A DNA stretch of 64,000 bases. Source: Patescibacteria group bacterium. GTDB taxonomy: Bacteria; Patescibacteriota; Minisyncoccia; Phycocordibacterales; UBA1006. The notes under the pieces were generated by a model. The model was not told the DNA's origin. It saw nothing but the letters and a program-made list of their open reading frames with translations, and searched no databases. A program made the translations under genes and the position numbers. Below are positions 1-39,114 of this stretch, piece by piece. The stretch covers positions 36 to 64,035 of the forward strand of contig JAGQMN010000002.1 in NCBI GenBank assembly GCA_020428645.1, in the 5' to 3' direction. Positions within the stretch are counted from its first letter, which is position 1; each line of letters starts with the position of its first letter.

Positions 1-1962
<1,962 letters not shown>

Positions 1963-3043: not shown

Positions 3044-4297
3044 TTACCCTTCGGTAAAGTACGCGATGAGACGTGCCGGGTCAACAAATTCGACATCTCC
3101 TGTGGCACGTTTGGTGATTTCAACACCACCTTTTTCAGCAGATTTTTCCGATACGACAATGCGGTATGGCATACCCATGAGGTCAGCATCATTCAACTTT
3201 TGACCAGGACCGAGGTCTCGATCATCAAACAGTACCTCAATACCCGCATTCTCTAAATCATGGTACAAGCTCTCGGCTTCGCGAAAAATATTTTCGTTGT
3301 TACCAAAGGTAAGAAGGTGGATCGTAAACGGTGCGATTTCTTCCGGCCATACAATACCCTTGTCATCAGCGAGGTTTTCAACAATGACACCCATTACACG
3401 TGTAATGCCAATACCATATGAACCAAGATACACAGGAATCTGTTTTCCTTCTTCACTGGTTACCAACAAATTCATATCCGCACATTTTTGAGTTCCAAAA
3501 TTAAAAATATTTCCTACTTCGGCAGTTGTTACTTTTTCAAGTTCACCTGCGGTAACCCCTAATTTTTTCAAGGTGTCATCGTTGTACACTTCATCATTAA
3601 TAGCAATTCCTTTTTCACGATTAATGTAAATTTCATCTTCACCGGTATCACAAATCGTTTGAAATTCATGGCTAAATTCAGTAAACGCTCCACCTCCTGC
3701 AAAGGTAATAAACGTATCATTACCGATACCTAAGCGATCGTAGCAGCGCTGGTATGCCTGAATAGTTTTTTGGTAGAAATCTTCATGGTGTTCTGCATCC
3801 AAAGAAAATGAATACATATCTTTCATGATAAATTCTCGTCCACGCATCATTCCCGCTTTTGCACGTAGTTCATTTCTAAATTTATTTTGAAACTGATACA
3901 CGTATGCGGGAAGATCTTTATATGAAGAGAGGTGGCTCTTCATCATTTCAGTAATTGGTTCTTCGTGTGACCAACCAAACCCTACCTCACCACCAGCGTT
4001 CAAAGTTGACTTAAACCATACATCTACAACATCATCATCCCAGCGTTTCGTTGCTGTCCATACATCCTTTGATTGTAGGCTCGACATAATGAATTCTTGA
4101 CCACCAATCGCATTCATTTCTTGGCGTACAATTTCTTTGATATTTTCAACAACCTTACTACCAAGTGGCAACAGATCGTACACACCAGCCATCTCCTTGT
4201 GAATATATCCAGCACGTATCAAAAGCTGTGCATTCTTTGATGTTTCATCACTCGGTGCTTCTTTACGAGTTTTGGTGAACAACTTGGACTGTTTCAT
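3044..4297 (-). CDS. proS: prolyl-tRNA synthetase, short bacterial-type form without the INS editing domain
   Basis: 417 aa with class II motifs (FRNELRAKAGMMRGREFIMKD, GSYGIGITR) and a C-terminal anticodon-binding domain. Its length leaves no room for the INS insertion. Confidence 0.88.
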   Translation of the reverse strand: MKQSKLFTKTRKEAPSDETSKNAQLLIRAGYIHKEMAGVYDLLPLGSKVVENIKEIVRQEMNAIGGQEFIMSSLQSKDVWTATKRWDDDVVDVWFKSTLNAGGEVGFGWSHEEPITEMMKSHLSSYKDLPAYVYQFQNKFRNELRAKAGMMRGREFIMKDMYSFSLDAEHHEDFYQKTIQAYQRCYDRLGIGNDTFITFAGGGAFTEFSHEFQTICDTGEDEIYINREKGIAINDEVYNDDTLKKLGVTAGELEKVTTAEVGNIFNFGTQKCADMNLLVTSEEGKQIPVYLGSYGIGITRVMGVIVENLADDKGIVWPEEIAPFTIHLLTFGNNENIFREAESLYHDLENAGIEVLFDDRDLGPGQKLNDADLMGMPYRIVVSEKSAEKGGVEITKRATGDVEFVDPARLIAYFTEG

Positions 4298-29092: not shown

Positions 29093-29638
29093 ATGACAAC
29101 TATAGTCCAAGTAGGAAAAAAAGTGCTCCGCATGAAAGCACAAGAAGTACCAAAAGATGCTATTGCCTCGCCCGAAATACAGGGTGTGATAGCGCGTATG
29201 AACGAAGCGCTCGCCACCCAAAATGATGGGGTTGCTATTGCCGCACCACAAATTGGTGAATCCTATCGTATCTTTACGATTTCACCTGTTGTATTTGAAG
29301 AACCTGGTGATTACCATTTGGTCTACATCAATCCTGAAATAATGGAGGTGTCTAAGAAAACAAAGCTCTTGAATGAAGGGTGCCTCTCGTGTCGTTGGAA
29401 AATTGGCGATGTAGAAAGACACCTAACGGCAACGGTTCGGGCATATGACGAATATGGTAACCAATTTACTGAATCAGCTGACGGACTCCTCGCACATATT
29501 TTCCAACACGAAACCGATCACCTTGATGGTATTCTCTTTATCGACAAAGCAGAAAATCTGCGCGATATGACTGAGGAAGAAATTAATGAGGTACTCCAAG
29601 AAAATGCATCCCCACGGTACGACCAAATTAAAGACTAA
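29093..29638 (+). CDS. def: peptide deformylase
   Basis: 181 aa from the ATG at 29093: GVAIAAPQIG, EGCLS, HETDHLDG. The track ORF starting at 28937 is an upstream extension that overlaps hisS. Confidence 0.93.
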   Translation: MTTIVQVGKKVLRMKAQEVPKDAIASPEIQGVIARMNEALATQNDGVAIAAPQIGESYRIFTISPVVFEEPGDYHLVYINPEIMEVSKKTKLLNEGCLSCRWKIGDVERHLTATVRAYDEYGNQFTESADGLLAHIFQHETDHLDGILFIDKAENLRDMTEEEINEVLQENASPRYDQIKD

Positions 29639-29650
29639 CAGAAAAAAATA

Positions 29651-29679
29651 AAAACCACAGCCAAATGGCTGTGGTTTTT
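29651..29679 (+). terminator. intrinsic terminator after def
   Basis: AAAACCACAGCC-AAAT-GGCTGTGGTTTTT. Confidence 0.8.
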
Positions 29680-29752
29680 ATTGAACATGTCACAAACTAA
29701 ATTATGCTATGTGAACATATTTATACGTCATAACATAGTGGTATGAAATAAT

Positions 29753-29855
29753 TAAGAGAGGTTCTCTGTCATTCAGCGACAGATCGGGCGATGATACTTC
29801 ATCTAAGTATCATCGCCCGAATCCGGGACTGAATAGAATACCTCGTGTATCTATT
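29753..29855 (+). repeat. island end motif, copy 1 (TAAGAGAGGTTCT plus hairpins)
   Basis: TAAGAGAGGTTCTCTGTCATTCAGCGACAGATCGGG-[hairpin 29785-29819]-CCCGAATCC. Same architecture as 31119 and, inverted, 35528. Confidence 0.7.
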
Positions 29856-30019
29856 TTCTTCCTCCCCTCACTTTTACTAGACAGCAAAAGTGAGGGGATA
29901 AAAAAGTCGAATTTTACCTGACTGGATGGTATTCAACAAGACCATAACCTATTTAATTAAGATGCTCATCCCGAAGGATTCCCGAAATGGCTTTGCCATT
30001 TCGGGACCTAAACCTAGGT
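29856..30019 (-). repeat. island junction module J1
   Basis: Read on the minus strand: stop, 18-nt palindrome, hairpin 29980-30006, CCUUCGGG 29968-29979, degenerate AT hairpin, TTTTTTAT, variable hairpin 29864-29897, AGGAAGAA. Confidence 0.6.
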
Positions 30020-30415
30020 TTAGGATTTTTTTAACTTCGCTCCCCAACTATCAGCGAGGTTCTCTAGGGTTGGATCTTTTTTCTCTGATTTTTTAAAAAA
30101 ATCTTTCCCTACGGCAACCTCCTGGTCAGGACAATCTCTCTCGTTTACAAAACGAGAGGCAATCTCTTCTGCCCAGCCTAAGGGTGCAATGAGGAGTTTC
30201 CAACCCTCGCTTCCAGAACCTCCATACGTAGTAGTCTCCGATAAAATTCTAAGATTATTATCAGAATGAACAGAGAAAGCTGGCCATCTTTTTGCTCCGG
30301 ATCCCGGTCTATACTCTTGAACCAGGACAAGTTCTTGATTACAAGAACTTTTTTCATCAATTTCTCTCAAAAAGATTTTATCTTCTGAGGAAATGAAAAC
30401 ATTAGCAGCATACAC
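30020..30415 (-). CDS. hypothetical protein (island gene A)
   Basis: 131-aa ORF with a GTG start (uncertain). No recognisable family. Lies between the intact def and the displaced def 3' fragment. Confidence 0.45.
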   Translation of the reverse strand: MYAANVFISSEDKIFLREIDEKSSCNQELVLVQEYRPGSGAKRWPAFSVHSDNNLRILSETTTYGGSGSEGWKLLIAPLGWAEEIASRFVNERDCPDQEVAVGKDFFKKSEKKDPTLENLADSWGAKLKKS

Positions 30416-30453
30416 ATATCCCTCACTCTTATTGGAGGTTGCGAGATGGTTTT

Positions 30454-30546
30454 GATCACCTCGACGGTGTATTGTTCATCGACAAAGCACGTAAATTACG
30501 CGACATGACTGATGAAGAAATTAATGAGGTTTTACAGAAAAAATAG
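30454..30546 (+). pseudogene. displaced 3' fragment of a peptide deformylase gene
   Basis: Translates to DHLDGVLFIDKARKLRDMTDEEINEVLQKK*, which parallels def residues DHLDGILFIDKAENLRDMTEEEINEVLQEN (29516-29605). By eye about four fifths of nucleotides are identical. No 5' part is present. Confidence 0.85.
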
Positions 30547-30547
30547 T

Positions 30548-30995
30548 ATGGAAAAATTCAACGACAATCAAAAAAAAAGAGAAAGAGCCTGAGTTCGATG
30601 AGTTTCCAAAAGAATTTGGTAGATACTATCATGGTTCACCGCATAACGTAGAGGAATTATTAAGTCCAAAAGAAAGCGGAAATATTAGACCTGGTGAGGA
30701 AGTGAGACGATCTTTTAAGGATGTAGTATTTCTCACTAAGGATATACAACAAGCGGTACAATATGCTGGTCCTGGTGGAGTAGTCTACCATGTAGATGCT
30801 GACGCAGTCCGGTACAAAGACATTGCTGCTACATATCTCAATCCTAAAAAACTAAAATCAGTGAGCGAAAATATTTATGTTGCAAAACCTGAAGATATCG
30901 AAATGGTAGTCAAGTGGGTAAAGCAAGCAAATAGAAGAAAAAATGAACCTGAAAAGTATGTGGATTACTATGTTAAGAAATCACCTGAGCGATAG
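30548..30995 (+). pseudogene. frameshifted small gene (island gene F) with a YHGSP motif; broken or slippage-dependent at an A9 tract
   Basis: The ATG at 30548 opens a 14-codon frame that stops at 30590. The long frame (open from 30528, ending at 30995) has no ATG/GTG/TTG before 30702. Losing one A from the A9 run at 30570-30578 fuses the two into about 149 aa. Confidence 0.6.
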
Positions 30996-31052
30996 TAGAC
31001 CAACGTATTTATTGTGTCGATTTTTACTCAAAGTCATAAACAATTAACGAGG

Positions 31053-31092
31053 ACTCGTCTCCTATCAAACTTTTGTTTAAGTGGAGACGAGT
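31053..31092. terminator. hairpin between gene F and end motif copy 2
   Basis: ACTCGTCTCC-(20 nt)-GGAGACGAGT, a 10-bp stem. No clean T-run, so terminator function is tentative. Confidence 0.4.
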
Positions 31093-31118
31093 ACCAGCTA
31101 TAGTAACTAATACTTCAA

Positions 31119-31232
31119 TAAGAGAGGTTCTCTGTCATTCAATGACAGGTCGGGTGGTAATCATGATATGTAATCATGATTACCACCCGAATTTGTAATT
31201 CAATAATATTCTCACTTATATGCACAGAAACG
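31119..31232 (+). repeat. island end motif, copy 2
   Basis: TAAGAGAGGTTCTCTGTCATTCAATGACAGGTCGGG-[hairpin 31151-31189]-CCCGAATTT. The flanks are identical to copy 1, while the internal hairpin has a different sequence and is still fully paired. Confidence 0.7.
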
Positions 31233-31335
31233 TTCTTCCTCCGACACCACTTCTCTTCTTAACTTATGAAAAGAAGTGGTGTCGGATAAAAAAGGCAATT
31301 TTTTGAAGAAATTGCCAGAAAACTTTATGCACTAA
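31233..31335 (-). repeat. island junction module J2
   Basis: Minus sense: stop, AAAGTTTTCT, hairpin GGCAATTT/AAATTGCC (31294-31316), TTTTTTAT, variable hairpin 31241-31285, AGGAAGAA. Confidence 0.6.
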
Positions 31336-32382
31336 TTAAGAATTTAAAAATTTTTCCATTATAATTTCTGCTTCGTAATCATCATCCAAATTCTTGTCAC
31401 AAAAATCATATCTTTGTGTTGTTTGTAAATTACGATAAAAAAACTTTTCTCTTTCTTCTAAAGACATTTCTTTGAAGAAATTCATTATAGGATTATTTTT
31501 TAATTGCTTATAATGATCCTGCAACTTTTTTTCAAGTTTTTTCATTTCTGATAAAATTTTTTTCATTGTAACAATGTCATATTCTGAGTGTTTTACTGGT
31601 TGTTTTTTTAAACACCTCGTCACACGTTTATTGCCTGATGATTCGCGATATCCATCAGGCATCGAAGAGGGGTCAGAGACAAGAATATCTTCACTTGCTC
31701 TTAATACCCATTTATTACCTTCAAACACAGCAGCACAACCCCAAGAAATTTTGAATAGCTCTTTATTGTGGTATTTTCTAAATTTCTCAAAAACCTTTGG
31801 TTTTTGAGGTACAATTGTTGTATTGTTTAGAAACGCGCTGATGATGACCTCTGTTGGAAAATTAAACTTAAGTAGACTACTTATTTTCCGGGTGGTGAAG
31901 TCAGACGAGCAAAAACTTCTATTCAAAGATTTATATCTTTTGATAATAGCCCTTCTTGTACGAATCACATCTTTATTCGGTTTGAATTGATGGATATGTC
32001 CATATGTTAACTGTAATTCTTCTTTTTTAAGATTATTACAATAAACTTGAAAATCTATTTGTTCTTTTGATAAAGTCTTCCTTAAAGACTCTGATCTAGC
32101 ATATAGAAAATCTATGGCTTCTTTTTTGCTTATTCTTTTCAAATACACAACTGGATGCACTTTGTCTGGATACTTGATTGCTCTTTTCTCCAAATCAATA
32201 CAAGAGCTTTCAGCTCCACTTAAAATTTTATAAGCCTCCTCCACATAAGAGAGATAGTATTCTGCATATTGATAATTTTCAACTCTGTCATCTTCATTAA
32301 ATGAATAATAAGGAGTATGAATTACCTTTACATTAATTTTATTTTCCTTTCTGTGAATAAGGAATGAACTATTTTTTGACAT
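31336..32382 (-). CDS. hypothetical protein (island gene B), very AT-rich
   Basis: 348-aa ORF with no recognisable motifs. Confidence 0.55.
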   Translation of the reverse strand: MSKNSSFLIHRKENKINVKVIHTPYYSFNEDDRVENYQYAEYYLSYVEEAYKILSGAESSCIDLEKRAIKYPDKVHPVVYLKRISKKEAIDFLYARSESLRKTLSKEQIDFQVYCNNLKKEELQLTYGHIHQFKPNKDVIRTRRAIIKRYKSLNRSFCSSDFTTRKISSLLKFNFPTEVIISAFLNNTTIVPQKPKVFEKFRKYHNKELFKISWGCAAVFEGNKWVLRASEDILVSDPSSMPDGYRESSGNKRVTRCLKKQPVKHSEYDIVTMKKILSEMKKLEKKLQDHYKQLKNNPIMNFFKEMSLEEREKFFYRNLQTTQRYDFCDKNLDDDYEAEIIMEKFLNS

Positions 32383-32389
32383 AATTTAT

Positions 32390-32445
32390 ATATTTAAACG
32401 TTAGCCAAAACTTCCATCAGAAAGCCAAAGCTAACGTTTAAATAT
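32390..32445 (-). promoter_or_regulatory. start-proximal leader hairpin of gene B
   Basis: 16-bp perfect stem ATATTTAAACGTTAGC/GCTAACGTTTAAATAT with a 24-nt loop that begins TTTGG on the minus strand. Ends 7 nt before the ATG. Confidence 0.6.
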
Positions 32446-32638
32446 GATCATGAAATATTTTCTACAGGCAGGTTTTGCCGTTGGCAAAACCTGCCTGATA
32501 AAAAAGATAATGTTTTGTTTTTAGGCTCCATTATCAAAAGACCTTTATATAATATTTACTCCACACCACGTGGAAATTTTATTTCCCCGAAGGGTTAGCA
32601 TTCTTGGAAACCAATCCAAGAATGCTATTTTAGAAACA
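32446..32638 (-). repeat. island junction module J3
   Basis: Minus sense: stop, hairpin 32596-32627 (loop TTGGTT), CCCUUCGGGG 32585-32594, GATAATG/CATTATC hairpin, TTTTTTAT, variable hairpin 32465-32497, TAGAAAAT. Confidence 0.6.
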
Positions 32639-33463
32639 CTATGATTGCGTTCCACCAGCAAAACCCCGGTTCGGATTCCCGTAAGTATCCGAAATTCCGA
32701 GATCCGCAGCATTATCTAAAAATGCTTGAACGGTGGCTGCGTCACCGTTTAGCATTACCTTCTGCTCAAATCCTGGACGTGAGTCCACGTGAGCGAGAAA
32801 GCTTTTACCGGTCATGGTGCCGGCCTCTACCATAAATGGTAGAGCTCCATTTTTGCGGAAATCAGGAACCTCCTGATCCCCAACGGTAATGGTTGCCGTT
32901 GGATTTTCCAAAAGCGCTACGCACTTTTGGATTTCCTTTTTCGCTTCGTCTTCGCTTACGCGTTGACGAGCACATAGTTCGGGCAAACGAATTGCCAGAA
33001 CTTCCTCGGGCGTTACCCCAGGGCACTCGCCCTGGTACGCCGCGCCGAGGCAGTGATCAGCTGCAGCAATCACTCGCTGCTTTTGATCCAGTTGCAGACC
33101 AAGCAAGTCTGCAACCTGCCCCAGTGAGCTCCCTGCCTCAAAATCGGCAGGGGTAGCCGCAAACCCGGGGTCTCCAGGTTTGTGGTGGTCAACCACGATT
33201 TTTTCCTGCTTGATAGAATAACTATCAGCAGGGGTACACTCGATCAGAACCATCTGATCAAATGCGTCCACCTCGATTTCTTCTCCATTTTTGGAGATAA
33301 TTGAAGTGAATTTCCCGGCAGTGTCGGGGAAACACCGTTTAGTATTTCCTTCCCTGTCGGGTGCCGCGGCATAACCAACGGCAATATTTTTTTGTGCAAG
33401 CAATGCTTCTATTGCTTGCATTTCGATGTCGTTAGCACCGAGGATAAAAATTTGATTGCTCAT
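32639..33463 (-). CDS. hypothetical protein (island gene C), possible DHH-like phosphoesterase; visibly higher G+C than its neighbours
   Basis: 274 aa. VVDHHKPGDPG resembles DHH motif III, and there are N-terminal ILGANDIEM and C-terminal FAGG motifs. Assignment is weak. Confidence 0.55.
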   Translation of the reverse strand: MSNQIFILGANDIEMQAIEALLAQKNIAVGYAAAPDREGNTKRCFPDTAGKFTSIISKNGEEIEVDAFDQMVLIECTPADSYSIKQEKIVVDHHKPGDPGFAATPADFEAGSSLGQVADLLGLQLDQKQRVIAAADHCLGAAYQGECPGVTPEEVLAIRLPELCARQRVSEDEAKKEIQKCVALLENPTATITVGDQEVPDFRKNGALPFMVEAGTMTGKSFLAHVDSRPGFEQKVMLNGDAATVQAFLDNAADLGISDTYGNPNRGFAGGTQS

Positions 33464-33777
33464 ATTTTTATACTCTGCTGGGACAGAGATTCTATTTATT
33501 CCCAGAATTACTGAATTTTTTGCGGAGAATTACAGTCATGCTCCGTCTCGCTATCTGCCACGCTGGTGTCCCCACCTTTTGCAGAAATGTTATGCGTGGT
33601 ACTTGGCTGCGCCGTTCCTCGCGAGATTTTCTATGAGTTTTCTACCGAGATTGCTTTGCTTTCGCTCGCAATGACACGGTACAAAACTCAATAAAAAAGT
33701 CGATTTTTGAAAAGAATCGACAGAAACTTTTTAACCAATCTGAAACCATAGGCACCATACCTGCGGTTTCAAAAAAA
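33464..33777 (-). repeat. island junction module J4 plus a GC-rich structured leader of gene C
   Basis: Minus sense: stop, hairpin, TGGTTAAAAAGTTTCT, hairpin 33699-33721, TTTTTTATT, long hairpin 33635-33689, ATAGAAAAT, then nested helices CTCGC/GCGAG (33547-51 with 33621-25), CCACGC/GCGTGG (33558-63 with 33594-99) and GGTG-TCCC-CACC (33565-76). Confidence 0.55.
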
Positions 33778-34509
33778 CTAAGATTCCCAAATTAACTCTG
33801 GAATCAAAACTCCAGAGTGACGAATCAGAAAAATAATATCCTCTACCATTTTGAGAGGGTATTTTTTTCTTAACTCCATTTCATAATACTCCAGGGCTGT
33901 TTCCAGCCCATATTCTCTTTCAAGATTTTCAAAAAAATCTGAATTCAGAGTATCCCCCTCACCCTTACCAGAAATAAGGTCTTGGTAAGATACCCCTACT
34001 TCCTTTAATCTCTCTCGAGCCTCAAAGAAAAATAAAATAGTTTTCTTTTCTTCTTCGCTCGTTTTAAGGATCTCAAGATAATCCTCGAGATCCTTTGAAC
34101 GCCCCTCCGCTAAAAGGGCTTTTTCTTTCTTATGTCGTATTGCAAACTCACGACTGCAATACGCTGGATTTTTTTGATCAGCTTCTGGTAGCTGATCATT
34201 TACGAGAATATCAACGACCCTTTGGTCGTCTTTTCCTAATAGAAGTCCCGCGTCGAGGACCTCTGTCCATTTCATAAACCCCGAAGGACTCTCGAGGTGT
34301 TTGGTTGTGGATCCATCCTGAAAGTCCATCGTGGCTATCAGGATCTTTTTTATTTTTTCCATGTCCTTGGTCGAGGACACTATCACGTCAACGTCTCTTA
34401 TCTCCCTCGAGATAAGATTGTGTTTTTTAAGAACCATAGAACCTACGATTCTTAAATTTATTTTTTTTGAAATGTTTTCCAACATCTCAGTAATTTTGAT
34501 ATTTTTCAT
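33778..34509 (-). CDS. Pol-beta superfamily nucleotidyltransferase-domain protein (island gene D)
   Basis: 243 aa. RIVGSMVLKKHNLISREIRDVDVIV fits the hG[GS]-x(9-13)-DhD NTase signature. Helical C-terminal half. Confidence 0.6.
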   Translation of the reverse strand: MKNIKITEMLENISKKINLRIVGSMVLKKHNLISREIRDVDVIVSSTKDMEKIKKILIATMDFQDGSTTKHLESPSGFMKWTEVLDAGLLLGKDDQRVVDILVNDQLPEADQKNPAYCSREFAIRHKKEKALLAEGRSKDLEDYLEILKTSEEEKKTILFFFEARERLKEVGVSYQDLISGKGEGDTLNSDFFENLEREYGLETALEYYEMELRKKYPLKMVEDIIFLIRHSGVLIPELIWES

Positions 34510-34516
34510 GGTTTTA

Positions 34517-34567
34517 ATTTTAAAGTTACCTAAAATCTCTAACAGAGACCAAAGGTAACCTTAAAAT
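34517..34567 (-). promoter_or_regulatory. start-proximal leader hairpin of gene D
   Basis: 14-bp stem (one mismatch) ATTTTAAAGTTACC/GGTAACCTTAAAAT with a 23-nt loop that begins TTTGG on the minus strand. Ends 7 nt before the ATG. Confidence 0.6.
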
Positions 34568-34720
34568 AATACTTATGAAAATATTTCAGGTTTTCTTCCT
34601 TCGGTGGATTTTACTACATAAAACCCACCGAATAAAAAAGTCGATTTTTGAAAAGAATCGACGGAACTTTTTAACCATTCCCCGAAGGGAACCCAAGCCA
34701 GCGACCAAGCTGGCTTGGGT
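34568..34720 (-). repeat. island junction module J5
   Basis: Minus sense: stop, hairpin 34691-34720 (loop TTGGTC), CCCUUCGGGG 34680-34689, TGGTTAAAAAGTTCC, hairpin 34640-34662, TTTTTTATT, variable hairpin 34601-34631, AAGGAAGAA. 34632-34677 is near-identical to 33691-33737. Confidence 0.65.
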
Positions 34721-34957
34721 CTATTGCCAGAATTTCCATGTTTCTATGCTATTTCTAATCTGGCGTATTTCCTCTCTGGTAAGTTCCTCTACCGAGGAAC
34801 TTGTTTGAATGGATTTGATCATGTTAAAGAAGTTTTGAACTTCTTTAACTTCATCGATCAGACGACATTTCGCCTGAAAACTCTACTTCCCTTTCTCTGA
34901 AAGGGATTCCACTAGATGCTGGTTGCATCTTTCTAATTCTTGTTTTAAATTTCCCAT
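34721..34957 (-). pseudogene. small helical ORF (island gene E) interrupted by an in-frame TAG
   Basis: Own translation: MGNLKQELERCNQHLVESLSEKGK*SFQAKCRLIDEVKEVQNFFNMIKSIQTSSSVEELTREEIRQIRNSIETWKFWQ*. The amber codon at 34883-34885 is in frame with the ATG at 34957 and the stop at 34721. Confidence 0.4.
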
Positions 34958-34961
34958 TTTA

Positions 34962-35048
34962 CTTGTTTTGGTGAACTTTGGTTTCTTACTCAGATTCTGA
35001 ATCAAGTCCAGAATGATAAACCAAAAAACCAAAGTTCACCAAAACAAG
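34962..35048 (-). promoter_or_regulatory. start-proximal 23-bp perfect inverted repeat upstream of gene E
   Basis: CTTGTTTTGGTGAACTTTGGTTT (34962-34984) pairs with AAACCAAAGTTCACCAAAACAAG (35026-35048). The 41-nt loop begins TTTGG on the minus strand. Ends 4 nt before the ATG. Confidence 0.6.
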
Positions 35049-35515
35049 ATAAATATGAAAAGCTCTCTTGAAATTTCCAAATCATTTGGGATTCCAAGAG
35101 AGTGTGACGTAGTCAAATGTATGATGTTGTTTGACTACCTCCCACTCTCTTTCAAGAGTTTGTGTCCAGCGGTAGTTCATACTTCTGCTGCGCGTGTTGT
35201 TCGCCCGTCGTCAAAGTATGATCTACGTGGTATGAAATTATTAAGGTACCATCCTTTCTTCACCTCTCTTACATTAGCAACCCGAGATTCTGAAGCTGTC
35301 TGCCCTTAGGTAGGACGATGTCAGAATGACGAGCGACTTGGTAAAGAAATTTCTGGAGACGAAGGTGGTTAGTCTTCCCCGTCCAGCAGATTTCTTTATC
35401 AATCTGTCTTTATCAGATATCCACCAGTGACGAGTTCCGGTCGTGTGGTAGATTCTGAATGGAACGGTTGGTGTGCCCTCAGCGCCGTTTGCACCAACCC
35501 CGTATTGATTTGCAA
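35049..35515 (-). other. ORF-free region rich in paired segments (candidate large ncRNA or element-end structure); strand uncertain
   Basis: No ORF of 60 aa or more that I trust. There are many nested inverted repeats, e.g. CTCTCTTGAAA/TTCCAAGAGAG, GAGAGTG/CACTCTC enclosing GTAGTCAAA/TTTGACTAC, and GGTTGGTG/CACCAACC. Confidence 0.35.
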
Positions 35516-35528
35516 AGAACCTCTCTTA
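35430..35528 (-). repeat. island end motif, inverted copy
   Basis: The reverse complement reads TAAGAGAGGTTCTTTGCAAATCAATACGGGGTTGGTG...CACCAACCGTTCCATTCAGAATCTACC. Its 13-nt terminus matches 29753 and 31119, followed by the same CGGG-hairpin-CCG layout. Confidence 0.6.
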
Positions 35529-35691
35529 GTCTCGTACATATCGTAGCATGTGCTTGACATAGTGTCAATACAGTGTGACCATATTTTACAAACTATGAAT
35601 AATATTATGACATTGTATTAAAAAATATTGATTTTCAATACGATTTAGTCATGTGCTTGTGACATTTTAAATCTTTTGGTACTATACCAGT

Positions 35692-36459
35692 ATGGAAAAT
35701 ACGCAAACCATACAACAGCTAGAGACCTTAGGACTCTCTCGTGAACAATCACTGGTATACCTCTGCCTGCTCGATAACGGGTTTAGCAAGGCTGGTAGCA
35801 TACCGAAAAAGACAGGTTTGAAACGGGGTTTGGTGTATAAAGTTCTCGATCAGCTCATTGAACGCGGGCTTGCCAAAAAACACGGGGAAGATACTGCGGT
35901 TGCACGCTTTGCCCCACTCTCTCCTGAAGGATTAAAATCACTCGTGGAAGAGAAACTTCGAGCTGCTGAAGCACACCAGGAACTCTTTAAGGATCTCTAC
36001 AGCCCACTTAAATCTAAATTCAATCTGTTAACGGGACGGCCAAGTGTACGGTACTACGAGGGTCACGATGAGGTTCGAGAGATGCTTTACGACTGTCTCG
36101 AAACAACAGGCGTCATCTACACCTACGCTGATGCCGACATGGTAGCCGAACACTTTCCTGATTTAAATAAGGAACATATTGCCGAAAGGCATGAACGCGG
36201 TATCGCAAAGAGAATTCTTGTTGCAGACAGCAAACACGGTCGACAGACCAAGAAGGACTCGCTGAAAGACGATCTAACCGACATACGGATTATCGAAAAA
36301 GAATATCTCCCCTTTAGCGCCGTTGCAGAAATATACGACAATAAAGTTGCCTATATTACCTCATCAGATATTGGAATATCTGGGGTATTGATTGAAGATC
36401 GACAAATTGCCACCATGCAAAAATTTATGTTTGAAGCTCTGTGGGAGCAATCACAATAG
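35692..36459 (+). CDS. TrmB-family transcriptional regulator
   Basis: 255 aa with an N-terminal winged helix (LETLGLSREQSLVYLCLLDNGFSKAGSIPKKTGLKRGLVYKVLDQLIERGL) and a TrmB-type C-terminal domain. Confidence 0.75.
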   Translation: MENTQTIQQLETLGLSREQSLVYLCLLDNGFSKAGSIPKKTGLKRGLVYKVLDQLIERGLAKKHGEDTAVARFAPLSPEGLKSLVEEKLRAAEAHQELFKDLYSPLKSKFNLLTGRPSVRYYEGHDEVREMLYDCLETTGVIYTYADADMVAEHFPDLNKEHIAERHERGIAKRILVADSKHGRQTKKDSLKDDLTDIRIIEKEYLPFSAVAEIYDNKVAYITSSDIGISGVLIEDRQIATMQKFMFEALWEQSQ

Positions 36460-36492: not shown

Positions 36493-39114
36493 CTATTCTG
36501 CTTGTTTTTCGTCAGGGTTAAGTTCTCGTTTATGCTCTAACACAACATAGTGCTTTCCTGTTGTATTATCAGTAAAGGAATGTGTCATAACGCCATGTTC
36601 CAATTGTGATCTATCAAAATCACGAGGATTATCGAGCACTAGAATATCAATACCTTTGGCGGTACTATATTCACCACTTCTAATTCCTTCTCGGGTAAAA
36701 CTCCGAGATAAGTAGCTGGTGTTTGCTTGATTATCCCAAACCAAATTAAGTGCATGAACACCTTCATACTTTGCAGCGGAAACAGCAACGAATCCCATGT
36801 CCAAGTATCGAGAACAAGCACTACCTGACATGTTTGCTTCAGCGTGTAGTACGTGTTCGTGAGCTTCTTTGGTTAATGCCTGAGCAATCATCGCCTCTCC
36901 TAATGCGTAGCCTTGAGATTCTTTTGCTACGTTTAACGCGCTGGCAAATTTACTTCCGTCTGGATTTGATTCAAAACGAATAAACGCATTAAGTTCATTA
37001 TTGATGCGATAAGTATAAAATTCACTATTGGTTTTGCTTTGAAAAGCTGTAGTAAATTGATTGATGAGTATGTGTCTCGTTTGGGGATCATACTGTTTAT
37101 TGTTTTCAGTATAGATCTCCAACATCTCCATCTGTTCCGGGATAGAGATGTCAGCGATATTTTTATGTTGAAACTCGGAACCCTTAATATCCTCTAACGT
37201 TAAATCAAAACCAAGTTTTCGAGCAAATTTAAAAGTAGAGAGTGTTGCTATAGCATCAGCAGAAATCTTCGATAATTCATTTTCAATAAGATGAACGGTG
37301 TCTAGTGTATCTGTTTCTTTGAGTGCATCGATGCGATTATAAAAAATATTTAATACGCTCACGCCTTTTTGTAGAATATTATCACAAACCCGGTCGATGA
37401 TTTCTGGATCATCTGCAATCTCATGAGAAAATTCTGATGTAATAAATGCCTCTATCCCCTTGGTTGCATCCACCAGTTCTGAATATTTAGTAAAAATAGC
37501 GTTTGCTGATTCTGAGGGAAGCTTTTCTGCAAGATCAAGAATTTTTTGACTCATTTCTGACCCACCAATATCAAGAGAAAGAAAAGCGCGTAAAATATTG
37601 TTACTATTCAAATCTTCATTTTTTAAGATAGTTTCAAGGGTGTTCCATTCATTTTGTTTTGTACCAGCTAGATAGTCGAGAAATTGTACCTGTTCATCAA
37701 GATACATTTCCCTCACATCAACACCAAACTCATGTTTGATTATCCATCTTACTTCAGGTGTATGCATAGATGAGATTAAACCAGCGTCTTTATTTTTAAT
37801 AACCTCGTTATACGGTGCGGGATGCACCGTAATTCTATTCTTCAATTTTTCATGAAGATATTTTTTCATGACAAAATAATCAAGTGATAATAACTCTTTC
37901 TTCTTTTTTTGAAATTGTTGAGCAATTTCTGGACTCTGATTTTTAATGTTCCAATCACAATAATCCAATCGATCACGGAGAAAAAATGAAAAATCAGTCT
38001 CATTGAGTTCATCTACATTTTTTCCTAAACCCTTACTTTCTTGCAAAAACGAGAGGAGGTCTTGATAGGTATGGTCATATACTTCGGCATTAACCCCTTC
38101 GAAAAAAACATTATTATTTTGAGTTCGGTAATCTTGAGAGACAAACAACCCAAAGGAAGATTGTAAACCATTAGAAAGGGAAAAATAATCTTTGGACACC
38201 TGTTGGATCCCTGCTGATCGATAGAAAGGGGAATTTAAATTTTCAACATAGTATCGAGTAGCGTTTTCTAAATGTTCATTATTGTTCGTGGTTATATTAT
38301 CATAATGACTATGTAAAAATTCACTTACCTCTCCGGTTTCCTCTTGTTTTTCTAAATCTTCAATGAGATGTAAATTGTAGTCAGCAAGTAAGTTTAATAA
38401 GGGTAGATTAAACTCTTCTTTGATACAGTGAATTATTTCAATACCTTTTAGATATGCATGGTGTGCACTCTCGTAACCTACACTCTGTGCATCAAGAGTA
38501 ATTCTTGCAATCGTTTTTAAAAAAATAATCTTTTTTTCATCTGAAAGAGATTGTACATAGTGTTTTATAGAATCACTAAGAGAATTTTCATATTCGAAAG
38601 ATATATTATAAACAACTTCTCCTGTGGTATGGTAGACAAGATTGTCCATACATCCAGAATTATTCATCTCCCCTAAAGCCAAAAAATAATTATTAACATC
38701 ATACGAAAGAAGTGGGGCAAGAATATTTGGACTACGCCCAAAAAAGTTTTCCTTAACAAATTGAATAAAATCATCTTTTTTTGATATTTCTATTTCTTGA
38801 GAGTAAAAAATTTCTTCTAGCTTATCTCTTAACAAGAGAACAAACTCATGGGTAAGGTCTGAGACTTCTTTTGTGACCAAATGATCTTCAGGACCACTCC
38901 CAAGTAGCGTTTTCATTTTTCGTTCAATGGGATTGGAAAAATACTTATTATCCCCATCAAGAGATCCAGACAAAAGAGTATCAAAGTAATCTTGGGTAAA
39001 TGTTCTGAATTCAGTTTTAATGTCTTCAAAATTTTCAATATGCTCTTTCACTTCAGGATTGACATTATTAAATTCTTTTTTCGTATTATCTTTTTTATAA
39101 GCCTCAGGATTCAT
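36493..39114 (-). CDS. large hypothetical protein with a probable C-terminal GNAT acetyltransferase domain
   Basis: 873 aa. The last ~170 aa carry a GNAT motif-A-like ESQGYALGEAM in a beta-alpha context. The N-terminal ~650 aa have no recognisable family. Confidence 0.5.
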   Translation of the reverse strand: MNPEAYKKDNTKKEFNNVNPEVKEHIENFEDIKTEFRTFTQDYFDTLLSGSLDGDNKYFSNPIERKMKTLLGSGPEDHLVTKEVSDLTHEFVLLLRDKLEEIFYSQEIEISKKDDFIQFVKENFFGRSPNILAPLLSYDVNNYFLALGEMNNSGCMDNLVYHTTGEVVYNISFEYENSLSDSIKHYVQSLSDEKKIIFLKTIARITLDAQSVGYESAHHAYLKGIEIIHCIKEEFNLPLLNLLADYNLHLIEDLEKQEETGEVSEFLHSHYDNITTNNNEHLENATRYYVENLNSPFYRSAGIQQVSKDYFSLSNGLQSSFGLFVSQDYRTQNNNVFFEGVNAEVYDHTYQDLLSFLQESKGLGKNVDELNETDFSFFLRDRLDYCDWNIKNQSPEIAQQFQKKKKELLSLDYFVMKKYLHEKLKNRITVHPAPYNEVIKNKDAGLISSMHTPEVRWIIKHEFGVDVREMYLDEQVQFLDYLAGTKQNEWNTLETILKNEDLNSNNILRAFLSLDIGGSEMSQKILDLAEKLPSESANAIFTKYSELVDATKGIEAFITSEFSHEIADDPEIIDRVCDNILQKGVSVLNIFYNRIDALKETDTLDTVHLIENELSKISADAIATLSTFKFARKLGFDLTLEDIKGSEFQHKNIADISIPEQMEMLEIYTENNKQYDPQTRHILINQFTTAFQSKTNSEFYTYRINNELNAFIRFESNPDGSKFASALNVAKESQGYALGEAMIAQALTKEAHEHVLHAEANMSGSACSRYLDMGFVAVSAAKYEGVHALNLVWDNQANTSYLSRSFTREGIRSGEYSTAKGIDILVLDNPRDFDRSQLEHGVMTHSFTDNTTGKHYVVLEHKRELNPDEKQAE

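Follow-up and report, generated by a model that had tools for sequence, protein, structure and literature searches.

Why are unrelated genes of mixed base composition, lying side by side in an ultrasmall Patescibacteria genome, separated by one and the same structured sequence? The question is raised by the interval between def and a divergent TrmB-family regulator gene in a 64,000-nucleotide stretch of DNA (the window; Table 1). The reading that we favour, and hold to be reasonably probable as a whole, is that this interval is an expression locus, at once conserved and hypervariable, composed of single-gene modules that are mostly orphans together with a recurrent DHH-like phosphoesterase.

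Table 1. Positions in the window of the array features and their constant flanks.
Feature	Positions	Strand	Evidence or remarks
TrmB-family regulator gene	35692-36459	+	Pfam PF01978, E = 6.7e-10
Main promoter-like site (TTGACA and TG-extended TACGAT, 17 nt apart)	35540-35568	-	best sigma-70-like match of region, 10/12 positions
Conserved structured leader RNA	35165-35532	-	9-species alignment, consensus hairpin with compensatory pairs
First slot: long leader hairpin (35060-34950), small ORF E (34957-34721)	34721-35060	-	translation; in-frame TAG at 34885-34883
Junction J_E	34590-34720	-	covariance model, 53.8 bits
Cassette D: leader hairpin (34567-34517), gene D, 243 aa (34509-33778)	33778-34569	-	
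Junction J_D	33623-33775	-	covariance model, 40.4 bits
Cassette C: conserved 160 nt leader (33622-33464), gene C, 274 aa	32639-33622	-	PADLOC DHH_CorA, E = 8.6e-9
Junction J_C	32454-32627	-	covariance model, 49.3 bits; strict scanner match
Cassette B: leader hairpin (32443-32392), gene B, 348 aa	31336-32443	-	leader hairpin covariation
Junction J_B	31325-31230	-	covariance model, 50.1 bits
Terminal RNA unit B, directly 3' of J_B	31119-31229	-	long hairpin 31190-31150; 3' box 31148-31119
Gene X, inside island, interrupted by A9 run	30551-30995	+	translation
def C-terminal remnant	30442-30545	+	33 codons, own stop; repeat D1, 78% identical to 29516-29604; translation
Gene A, 131 aa	30415-30020	-	
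Junction J_A	30006-29853	-	covariance model, 53.1 bits; repeat D5
Terminal RNA unit A, 3' of J_A, with second 3' box	29753-29852	-	
def gene (constant flank), shared bidirectional terminator (29647-29682)	29093-29682	+	Pfam PF01327; terminator scan

Structure of the junctions

Five collinear junctions on the minus strand share a weak terminator hairpin, the sequence CUUUUUUAUY, a variable hairpin that is always paired and a purine block. A preliminary description had proposed that every gap repeats a longer, fixed order of elements; the collinear core stands, but the C(UUCG)G mini-hairpin is present in 3/5 junctions and only two match the spacer TGGTTAAAAAGTTYC exactly, a third having it in degenerate form and two lacking it. 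Post-stop hairpins lie at 34720-34691, 32627-32596 and 30006-29980. The mini-hairpin sequence CCTTCGGG occurs five times in the window (4/5 in the island; 0.83 expected) and CTTTTTTATY eight times (0.86 expected), the junctions accounting for five of the eight. By scanning strictly for a T-run, ATY, a perfect hairpin of at least 8 bp and a purine 8-mer we obtained four sites, all on the minus strand within the island, compared to 0 or 1 in 30 shuffles, so that the recurring junction is real. The near identity noted earlier for two of the cores is confirmed: those of J_D (33690-33737) and J_E (34631-34677) are one substitution and one indel apart (46/47 identical). A small palindrome is inserted in the variable hairpin of J_D.

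J_E runs from the post-stop hairpin and UUCG mini-hairpin through TGGTTAAAAAGTTCC, the terminator hairpin (34662-34640) and CUUUUUUAUU to the variable hairpin and AAGGAAGAA. All of these elements are visible in the minimum-free-energy fold of this E-to-D junction RNA (folding z-score -10), where the purine block pairs with the U-run. Using 14 junctions from five species, we find that 11/11 stem positions of the variable hairpin have changed on both sides with 98% of cells paired, a result equalled by 0/500 shuffles, which bears out the compensating stem changes noted in the preliminary description; the U-run and purine block pair in 82% of cells. Among mismatches G·U is tolerated and A·C is not (28:1 in the junctions; the ratio is 24:1 in the leader hairpin), and each junction carries a predicted weak intrinsic-terminator hairpin with its U-run, as had been described. 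Since both features point to a role on the sense strand, we conclude that the joints are elements of the sense RNA.

A covariance model of the junctions, proposed earlier as a check, found 13 of them at 40–54 bits, all in def–TrmB arrays and from four of the five species used for training the model. Of this genome we searched the 64 kb window, together with some 100 kb from relatives and 0.89 Mb of viral DNA; outside the arrays there was no match in the first two sets (164 kb together) and none in the viral DNA. Nor was the motif found in the remaining 58 kb of the window or the flanks of related loci, which argues against the generic intergenic design that had been raised as a possibility.

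Predicted promoter, leader RNA and array boundaries

By sigma-70-like scoring, which is to be read with the proviso that Patescibacterial promoters are poorly known and weak ones inside the joints are possible, the region holds a single good promoter-like site. It is overlapped by a palindrome, TTGACAyTATGTCAA, which six relatives (L023, L024, L029, L030, L046 and L049) also have upstream of the 5' box and which is probably an operator, promoter and operator function being predicted here from sequence. The regulator gene is the constant anchor of the locus across all relatives, and TrmB homologues of 34–68% identity adjoin the same leader RNA in L023, L024, L027-L029, L043, L046 and L049.

Across relatives the leader RNA measures roughly 400–500 nt. 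It contains a 5' box, TAAGAGAGGTTCTTTGCAAATCAAT (35528-35500), a conserved hairpin (35402-35338) with an invariant CUAACCA loop, a second GAGAGAGGTGAAGAAA box and a GACGACGGGCGAA...GCGCAGCAGAA motif. Its 5' hairpin has a G·U:A·C ratio of 14:3, its folding z-score is -2.8, and no Rfam family matches it even at E up to 5. Its GGTTCTTTGCAAA we take, by resemblance to rRNA leaders, to be boxA-like. The leader RNA makes up about 370 nt of a non-coding stretch (34957-35532; size given as ~900 nt) that was missed in the preliminary description, as were small ORF E and the def remnant with its neighbouring plus-strand gene. The latter two form a second copy of the array's 'def end' boundary.

It had been suggested that each junction is followed by a leader hairpin and an ATG. 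This fails after genes A and B, where a terminal RNA unit of ~100 nt takes the place of a gene. The 3' box of unit B, ending ...CTGTCATTGAATGACAGAGAACCTCTCTTA, is complementary to the 5' box (inverted repeat I4), with a duplex energy of -32.4 kcal/mol compared to a shuffled mean of -10.6; the 3' box of unit A gives -28.9 kcal/mol. Every array is bracketed by such a covarying 5'/3' complementarity of 25–30 nt (-19 to -32 kcal/mol over species, against about -9 to -11 for shuffles), with arms that are compensatory between species (TAAGAGAGG/CCTCTCTTA, TTTGAGAGAGG/CCTCTCTCAAA, TAGAGAGAGG/CCTCTCTCTA). The bracket of L028 surrounds about 510 nt of RNA with no gene in it. Array boundaries are set by this long-range 5'/3' complementarity, which the preliminary description had missed.

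Inverted repeats I4 and I8, which bracket 31119-35528 and 29753-35528, could instead be the 25–30 bp termini of a mobile or invertible element, such as a cargo-carrying non-autonomous transposon or prophage remnant, and the co-changing arms and the gene-free minimal form of L028 would fit such an element too. We regard this as very unlikely, since every species examined has the array in the same position, beside TrmB and, where the far flank is known, facing def (as also in L046 and L049), with no additional copies in the 64 kb window and no evident target-site duplication at the ends. Arm mismatches are G·U on the sense strand, the inverted arrangement occurs in no contig, no transposase is annotated in the surrounding ~10 kb or in related arrays, and no cargo protein matches a PHROG.

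Gene content among species and strains

The modules are strikingly mixed. Gene B, AT-rich as first described (29.9% GC, window 41.2%), is a strict orphan with no homologue in 1.84 billion representative proteins, while the GC-richer gene C (50.2%) encodes a DHH-like phosphoesterase with >1000 homologues. Ahead of gene C lies a conserved 160 nt leader rather than the short hairpin originally drawn, and this leader is kept in L023, L024 and L046, though the L046 protein is only 29% identical. Gene D has a single homologue in 5.8 billion proteins (52% identity), which occupies the first slot of another species and retains the same 3' hairpin and junction core. In L023 gene D's leader hairpin is followed by a different gene, of 161 aa, and the first-slot type of leader hairpin has different first genes behind it in L029, L043 and L050.

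Relatives retain def, TrmB, promoter, leader RNA and junctions, and differ in the genes between the junctions, which are mostly orphans: five lie between def and TrmB in the window, three in L046 and two in L049, all unrelated. What had been seen as an island interrupting housekeeping synteny is instead a conserved hypervariable def–TrmB locus with a conserved promoter and structured RNA.

Closer comparisons place the differences at the joints. Gene D is flanked by a 47 nt near-identical junction repeat, and a 507-aa gene of L046 by a 129 nt repeat (97.7% identical). Variation between strains, which the preliminary description had advised looking for, was found at joints in two cases. In the first, the metagenome contig L006, D is missing precisely from between its repeats, with the crossover within a 32 nt stretch identical in both; this evidence for loss within the species is one short-read contig spanning a 32 nt exact repeat. 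Logan contigs of a D-containing sample instead break off at D's repeats. In the other, L024 and L025 are 99.8% identical over 1542 nt and diverge right past GAGGAAGAAA. Eight further contigs of this species, from several samples, are 99.8–100% identical to the window across the array, suggesting that it is mostly stable at strain level.

Such stability, the same locus position in all species and the RNA nature of the structures would also be expected of an ordinary vertically inherited operon, its joints being lineage-typical UTRs from old tandem duplications and its species differing by gene loss and fast divergence. We consider this unlikely: cargo proteins are unrelated among species whose TrmB proteins are 52–68% identical, adjacent genes span 30% to 50% GC, the D homologue sits in another slot, and near-identical repeats surround single genes while other joints of the same genome have diverged. 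The strain differences at joints and the second def end within the island speak against it too.

Duplicated joints around single genes, the precise absence of D in L006 and the parting of two strains exactly at a joint end could suggest an integron-like system, in which joints are folded recombination sites and the cassettes are moved site-specifically by a recombinase of the tyrosine, serine or HUH type whose gene lies elsewhere in the genome; orphan cargo of mixed composition and one upstream promoter before apparently promoterless cassettes agree with it. However, the GTTRRRY/RYYYAAC core is absent, and integrase and transposase domains are missing from the genes annotated in the surrounding ~10 kb and in every related array, both as the preliminary description had observed for the window. 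The 28:1 bias and the U-run with its terminator-like hairpin indicate a sense-strand RNA role, and breakpoints lack one fixed position, lying variously within the 32 nt that both D repeats share exactly, past the purine block and at the leader hairpin. We therefore rejected the junctions as attC-like recombination sites and judge the integron-like scheme quite improbable. Of the cassette array as first conceived, the kept flanks around differing genes, the duplicated joints and the L006 and L024/L025 cases survive; the recombination-site behaviour of the junctions does not.

The account we prefer, with somewhat better than even confidence, is of one TrmB-controlled transcription unit on an RNA scaffold, in which homologous recombination at the conserved joints swaps the cassettes. 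A strong promoter beside the divergent regulator gene would feed into the leader RNA, and the string of modules would close in a terminal RNA unit whose last 25–30 nt are complementary to the leader's first 25–30 nt. Each module ends in stabilising hairpins past the stop codon and a weak intrinsic-terminator hairpin with U-run, followed by a long hairpin that is free in sequence and is lengthened at its base by U-run/purine-block pairing. Because selection on the RNA would keep the joints alike, they may double as portable homology, through which genes would be gained, lost or replaced. This could proceed within a genome, either by deletion or through a circle that forms and re-inserts, duplicating a joint; alternatively, the recombination could be with DNA taken up from relatives. 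More tentatively, the array may be read as a single TrmB-controlled, terminator-resistant transcript that is later cut at the long hairpins.

Comparison with known systems

Phage morons and flexible or replacement genomic islands likewise consist of self-contained gene units, each flanked by regulatory hairpins of its own, placed between conserved genes and atypical in base composition; the def–TrmB units differ in having one homologous joint in common and a single conserved, RNA-anchored locus instead of scattered sites. The likeness to integrons (IntI, attI, attC, Pc) extends to single genes that mostly lack promoters, have no assigned function and vary in composition, separating sites of conserved structure and variable sequence, an array downstream of a single promoter, and relatives that differ in cassette content. 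Here, in contrast, intI, attI and the attC core (RYYYAAC / GTTRRRY) are lacking, the joint pairs as RNA on the sense strand, terminator included, and breakpoints are unfixed.

The transcript model, with its boxA-like leader and leader–trailer helix, would bear some resemblance to an rRNA operon. The conserved promoter-proximal leader with its boxA-like GGUUCUUU(A/G) motif is one point of likeness. Others are a leader–trailer helix of >17 bp with the trailer kilobases downstream, which would be a natural RNase III substrate (PMC10250234), and internal terminator-like structures that would require read-through. The def–TrmB unit differs in enclosing protein genes and RNA of unknown kind rather than rRNA, and its boxA, like any dependence on Nus factors, is putative.

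The closest analogue is the PeSL (promoter-early stem-loop) motif, found in regulatory cassettes of the hyperplastic regions of T4-type phages (PMC2839356, PMC4122927). There too, short composite regulatory motifs with a terminator stem-loop lie between small, mostly orphan genes, and the breakpoints of insertions, deletions and replacements among close relatives fall in the motif. Homologous recombination between motif copies can release a gene and one motif as a circle, whose insertion duplicates the motif. The def–TrmB array differs in being chromosomal, at one fixed site in a Patescibacteria cell, with cargo that matches no phage family. Its joint shows no visible sigma-70 promoter and has an additional long hairpin sequestering the U-run, and the whole array lies within a conserved structured RNA with 5'/3' closing complementarity. 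Chromosomal gene-cassette shuffling at an RNA-structured joint, in an array housed in a conserved structured RNA beside a regulator gene, would be a novel form.

Gene content of the island

The island has a chromosomal context, with hisS, def, the signal peptidase gene and fmt nearby; the source genome is a Patescibacteria metagenome-assembled genome (NCBI tags KC866_00715 to 00725). Its cassettes differ in base composition, and the contrast reported in the preliminary description between an AT-rich gene B and a GC-richer gene C holds (29.9% and 50.2% GC, against 41.2% for the window). Gene C is the sole cassette gene with a family match. It matches the PADLOC model DHH_CorA (E = 8.6e-9), has more than 1000 homologues and, judged from this match, encodes a DHH-like hydrolase/phosphoesterase, while a PDB profile search with its family returned no match. 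Genes A, B and D gave no match in Pfam, PHROGs or NCBIfam, nor did the cargo genes of the relatives. With one homologue of D among 5.8 billion proteins and none of B among 1.84 billion representative proteins, both are orphans by sequence comparison.

The in-frame TAG of ORF E is the same in every contig of the species, and E is either a pseudogene or a read-through gene. Gene X, on the opposite strand, is broken by a run of nine A; with eight, an ORF of about 147 aa is restored. Contigs of three assemblies stop at 30925-30932, within gene X, and a short scaffold (L015) leaves the window sequence at 30106, being too short to separate a variant from a chimera. Heterogeneous strains or chimeric contigs at the island's def-proximal end could account for this. 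On the other side, the 873-aa neighbour of TrmB is syntenic in relatives, where it measures 881, 929 and 678 aa.

Positions of genes, RNA elements and sequence motifs of the locus (L023, L024, L027, L028 and L046 are related loci; all other positions are those of the window)
Feature	Position	Strand	Remarks
Gene A	30415-30020	minus	131 aa
Gene B	32382-31336	minus	348 aa
Gene C	33463-32639	minus	274 aa
Gene D	34509-33778	minus	243 aa
Small ORF E	34957-34721	minus	single in-frame TAG at 34885-34883
def C-terminal remnant and gene X	30442-30995	plus	remnant of 33 codons with its own stop; 78% nucleotide identity to 29516-29604
873-aa protein	36493-39114	minus	weak GNAT-like domain; adjoins TrmB
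Most similar joint cores	33690-33737; 34631-34677		one substitution and one indel apart
Joint spacer UGGUUA	34663-34677; 33723-33737
AACCAUG at the start of gene D	34507-34515
Palindrome GTCATTGCGAGCG...GCAATC	~33640-33675; L024 2170-2215, 2535-2560; L027 ~120-190		tips of variable hairpins
Gene C leader	33464-33622; L046 ~3340-3440; L023 4440-4600; L024 2880-3030	minus (window)	160 nt
RNA-like element	L024 4204-4328; L028 1781-1907		77% identical
Leader RNA	35165-35532	minus
Invariant loop CUAACCA of leader RNA	35360-35370
First ~30 nt of leader RNA	35528-35500
Last ~30 nt of terminal units	31148-31119; 29782-29753
19-nt direct repeat	29738-29756; 35227-35245		18/19 identical; directly after 3' box A and in leader RNA
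Sigma-70-like site	35568-35540
TrmB-RNA intergenic region	35540-35690

The structured joint and its confinement to the locus

Five joints, the structured junctions between cassettes, lie within the 6 kb of the island, and a repeat search of the window placed their cores in three repeat families (D2, D3 and D4). Several lines of evidence bear out the earlier claim of a repeated structured junction, including two almost identical cores. Where 0.86 copies of the motif CTTTTTTATY would be expected in 64 kb, there are 8, and five of them are joints; CCTTCGGG occurs 5 times against 0.83 expected, in four cases inside the island. A strict scanner (T-run plus ATY, a mismatch-free hairpin of 8 bp or more, and next at least 7 purines in 8) found four sites in the window, all within the island and on the minus strand, where 30 shuffles gave none or one. 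When folded, the RNA that runs from E's stop codon to D's ATG shows precisely the series of hairpins described, with a z-score of -10. The statement that every gap repeats the same elements survives only in part: the joints are collinear, but some elements are missing from some copies. The spacer TGGTTAAAAAGTTYC is exact in only two joints and the mini-hairpin is present in three of the five. Nor does each joint lead to a gene, since those after A and after B lead to a terminal RNA unit.

An alignment was made of 14 joints, drawn from five species, with the conserved T-run and the purine block as anchors; the joint ends read CTTTTTTATY and RAGGAAGAA or ATAGAAAAT. In the hairpin between these anchors, described earlier as different in each copy yet always paired, each of the 11 basal positions shows changes in both arms, and pairing holds in 98% of cells, a percentage that is partly built in because the arms were picked for pairing; the anchoring on the flanks and the sequence diversity of the joints are unaffected by this choice. 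In 82% of cells the U-run is base-paired to the purine block, the first pair covarying (U-A in seven copies, C-G in six). These pairing and covariation values were reached by none of 500 shuffles and by none of the slid controls. Mismatches that RNA tolerates predominate, with 28 G·U to 1 A·C in the joint, 24 to 1 in the leader hairpin before start codons and 14 to 3 in the conserved hairpin of the leader RNA. From this asymmetry we conclude that selection acts on the structures in the gene-strand RNA, and not as repeats of double-stranded DNA. The first joint hairpin, which is terminator-like, looks together with its U-run like a weak intrinsic terminator. The second, extended beyond 20 bp by the pairing of U-run and purine block, may act as a processing or stabilising stem.

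Two smaller features of the joints were also seen. In several species the variable hairpins carry the palindrome GTCATTGCGAGCG...GCAATC at their tips, where it resembles a very small mobile hairpin insertion. Between the joint spacer UGGUUA and the leader RNA's invariant loop there is complementarity; in the joint after E the spacer is also complementary to AACCAUG at the start of gene D, and the minimum-free-energy fold pairs the spacer with AACCAUG. With only 6 nt involved, these complementarities may be due to chance.

We searched a covariance model of the joint (R1) against the window and related loci, including the flanks of five of them (L011, L027, L028, L033 and L043), 164 kb together. 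Thirteen sites scored 40-54 bits, five in the window and eight in the related arrays L023, L046 and L049; all are training joints and lie within def-TrmB arrays. The fourteenth training joint, that of L024/L025 with its 82-nt hairpin, was missed, and the next-best matches (31 bits or less) are reverse-strand echoes. The rest of the window (58 kb) and the five flanks gave nothing further. The generic intergenic design put forward in the preliminary description as an alternative is thus not what the searched DNA contains. In 0.89 Mb of unrelated viral contigs the top score was 19.6 bits, with nothing significant, and no cargo protein had a PHROG match. When viral DNA was scanned for two conserved stretches of the leader RNA, a 17-mer and a 16-mer, 107 loci were obtained, with no contig carrying both motifs; these appear chance-like, and of the 100 run through the joint model none was significant.

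Variable cargo and probable exchange at joints

Eight contigs from several samples are 99.8-100% identical to the window. The array is mostly stable at strain level, as would be the case for a plain vertically inherited operon. Distant relatives, found via homologues of gene C and TrmB, differ more widely. Scanning contigs with a single TrmB sequence gave no relatives, an alignment-based TrmB scan two loci and a metagenome scan seven. Common to all relatives are a divergently transcribed gene of the TrmB family, a conserved promoter that includes the palindrome TTGACAyTATGTCAA, the 5' box (T)TGAGAGAGGTTCTTTAA and the structured leader RNA. L046 (TrmB 61% identical) runs from def through a terminal unit and genes of 507, 306 and 413 aa to leader RNA and TrmB, the 306-aa protein being of the gene C family (29% identical). 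In L049 (52%) the same frame holds genes of 242 and 180 aa; L023 (56%) has an unrelated 161-aa gene followed by the C orthologue, L024 and L025 (53%) have C alone, and in L029 (68%) the first gene differs. In an all-against-all BLASTP of the cargo proteins, the C family was the only one common to different species. Membership of this family was ruled out by hhalign for the first gene of the related locus L033 (probability 0.2%).

Several observations place the changes at the joints. D is flanked by near-identical cores of 47 nt and the 507-aa gene of L046 by a 129-nt repeat of 97.7% identity, whereas the remaining joints of both genomes have diverged. The 161-aa gene of L023 is preceded by the same joint and leader hairpin as D in the window (77% nucleotide identity). 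In a same-species contig from run SRR7638748 (L006), 34631 is joined straight to 33737 onward, leaving out D, and the switch point lies within a 32-nt stretch identical between both repeats. Contigs of the same assembler from SRR5007144, in which D is present, break at the repeats flanking D, L037 being exactly 33690-34660, and no D-encoding contig is on record for SRR7638748. A real D-less variant is therefore likely, and an assembly jump less so. Over 1542 nt L024 and L025 share 99.8% identity; they diverge completely directly after the GAGGAAGAAA of the joint, beyond which L025 continues into a terminal unit and L024 into another RNA-like module, also found in L028. A homologue of D in the related locus L050 (52% identical) lies behind a leader hairpin of the first-slot type, together with D's own post-stop hairpin and joint core. 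Finally, the island contains a second array end, terminal unit B followed by convergent gene X and the def remnant, an arrangement to be expected after the import or duplication of an array end.

The RNA-like element shared by L024 and L028, two distant species, has no Rfam match; it stands after a joint in the former, and in the latter it separates the closed RNA from the following gene.

A fixed operon, the other alternative named at the outset, is contradicted by the D-less contig, the L024/L025 split, the flanking repeats, the slot of the D homologue and the second array end. Despite the stability at strain level, plain vertical inheritance of an operon is unlikely, given that the cargo is unrelated, the composition mixed, single genes are flanked by repeats and strains differ. 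In the DNA searched, the joints are conserved RNA structures that occur at this locus alone; the cargo varies among relatives and the breakpoints fall within joints. Of the cassette array first proposed, the logic is largely right; the mechanism and the framing were wrong.

The leader RNA and its predicted closing helix

The leader RNA begins with ~30 nt that are the complement of the final ~30 nt of each of the two terminal units. This complementarity of 5' and 3' boxes corresponds to inverted repeats I4 and I8 and spans 25-30 nt. The predicted duplexes have -32.4 and -28.9 kcal/mol in the window and -19 to -24 in four other species, against -9 to -11 for shuffles, and across the five species the outer duplex positions carry compensatory changes. 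Inverted ends are also what would bound a mobile or invertible element (a TIR transposon or MITE). However, the flanks differ (AAATAAT and GTCTCGT), so that there is no target-site duplication, the locus is the same in all species, the window holds neither further copies nor a transposase, and no contig has the opposite orientation; we regard such an element as very improbable. In L028, a locus of Paceibacterota with a TrmB 44% identical, only about 510 nt separate the boxes, and this stretch has no ORF. This gene-free bracket suggests that the ancestral object was probably a structured RNA closed by a terminal helix, with the genes lying inside.

Rfam 15 at gathering score found only tRNAs in the window and five related loci, and at E up to 5 only generic hairpin look-alikes (miRNA precursors, Phe_leader) in the island. 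We found no description of the leader RNA in the literature, and it is an undescribed structured RNA family. It adjoins TrmB genes across Paceibacterota and comprises a hairpin with the invariant loop, two to three GAGAGAGG boxes and a GACGACGGGCGAA...GCGCAGCAGAA motif, its hairpin block being recognisable even beside TrmB homologues only 34-35% identical (L034, L035). The leader motif GGTTCTTT(G/A)(C/A)AA, also written GGUUCUUU(G/A) or GGTTCTTTRMAA, is conserved; it may resemble rRNA boxA, a likeness that serves as a lead only. A likeness to RNase P (3' box to CR-V, AGGAAGAA to CR-I) was dropped, there being no Rfam match and the spacing being wrong. The 19-nt direct repeat and the duplicated def 3' end are unlikely to be att sites, because there is no integrase and the 19-mer lies within a leader-RNA block conserved in relatives.

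Gene C has a leader of its own, conserved by eye at about 80% of nucleotides even in L046 with its 29% identical protein. It contains small covarying stems, UUCUGCAAAAGG..GGGA..CCAGCGUGGCAGAUAGCGAGACGGAGCAUGA, has no Rfam match and is a candidate cis-regulatory RNA or riboswitch.

One strong sigma-70-like site was found in the region, Patescibacterial promoters themselves not being well defined, and no consensus promoter was found within the joints. In the TrmB-RNA intergenic region, the palindrome TTGACAyTATGTCAA covers the -35 hexamer and (T)GTCACA boxes are repeated, both kept in all relatives; this region is probably the operator of the TrmB-like regulator.

Proposed mechanism and comparison with known systems

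We infer that the cassettes are shuffled by homologous recombination between joints, either within one genome or with DNA taken up from relatives. Patescibacteria depend on DNA uptake and have tiny genomes in which few mobile elements are known. More cautiously, expression of the array may start with a single precursor transcript under TrmB control, in which the joint terminators are read through and the long hairpins are cleaved. We propose a single precursor because there is only one good promoter-like site and because a 3' box would make no sense unless it shared an RNA with the 5' box. As a tentative synthesis, the locus could be an undescribed large, TrmB-controlled structured RNA gene whose closing helix opens to take in ever more foreign orphan genes as an array; promoter, read-through of terminators and processing would all come from the RNA, and the joints would double as recombination substrate, giving an RNA-scaffolded, recombinase-free counterpart of the integron. 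A fixed chromosomal site at which orphan genes change places through conserved RNA joints, governed by a single regulator, would amount to a simple platform for gene capture and expression that needs no dedicated recombinase. The locus also adds three new conserved RNA elements, namely the ~400-500 nt leader RNA beside TrmB, the joint and the 160-nt leader of the DHH-like gene, and an orphan gene set likely relevant to the episymbiotic lifestyle or to phage conflict.

Integron-like site-specific recombination at the joints is quite unlikely. As already noted from the sequence, there are no attC cores at the joint ends and no recombinase is visible: no intI tyrosine recombinase adjoins the array, and no integrase or transposase appears in the Pfam lists of all genes within ~10 kb on either side, or in the related arrays. 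The R''/L''...L'/R' organisation and GTTRRRY core of attC are absent, and the pairing is of the RNA type (28 G·U against 1 A·C). In an integron, one upstream promoter serves promoterless cassettes; here one strong sigma-70-like site was seen, in a lineage whose promoters are poorly defined, and it might play a comparable part.

The nearest documented analogue is the modular shuffling mediated by PeSLs in T4-type phages (PMC2839356, PMC4122927). As there, the motif stands between orphan genes in a hyperplastic region (here five joints in 6 kb, with B and D orphans), and breakpoints of indels and replacements between close relatives fall in the motif (L006, L024/L025, the L046 repeat and the L023 replacement gene). 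A PeSL combines a strong sigma-70-like promoter with a terminator stem-loop; in the joints a terminator-like hairpin with a U-run is present, and no consensus promoter was found. In contrast to T4-type phage genomes and encapsidated mini-circles, the context here is chromosomal, and neither PHROG nor viral joint matches were found. The long-range helix of the array recalls the leader-trailer helix of rRNA operons (PMC10250234), a lead only: in both, a long leader-trailer-type complementarity encloses the unit, here predicted, of 25-30 nt and compensatory across five species. We conclude that the locus is a chromosomal, RNA-anchored variant of gene shuffling mediated by regulatory motifs, together with an undescribed structured RNA family.
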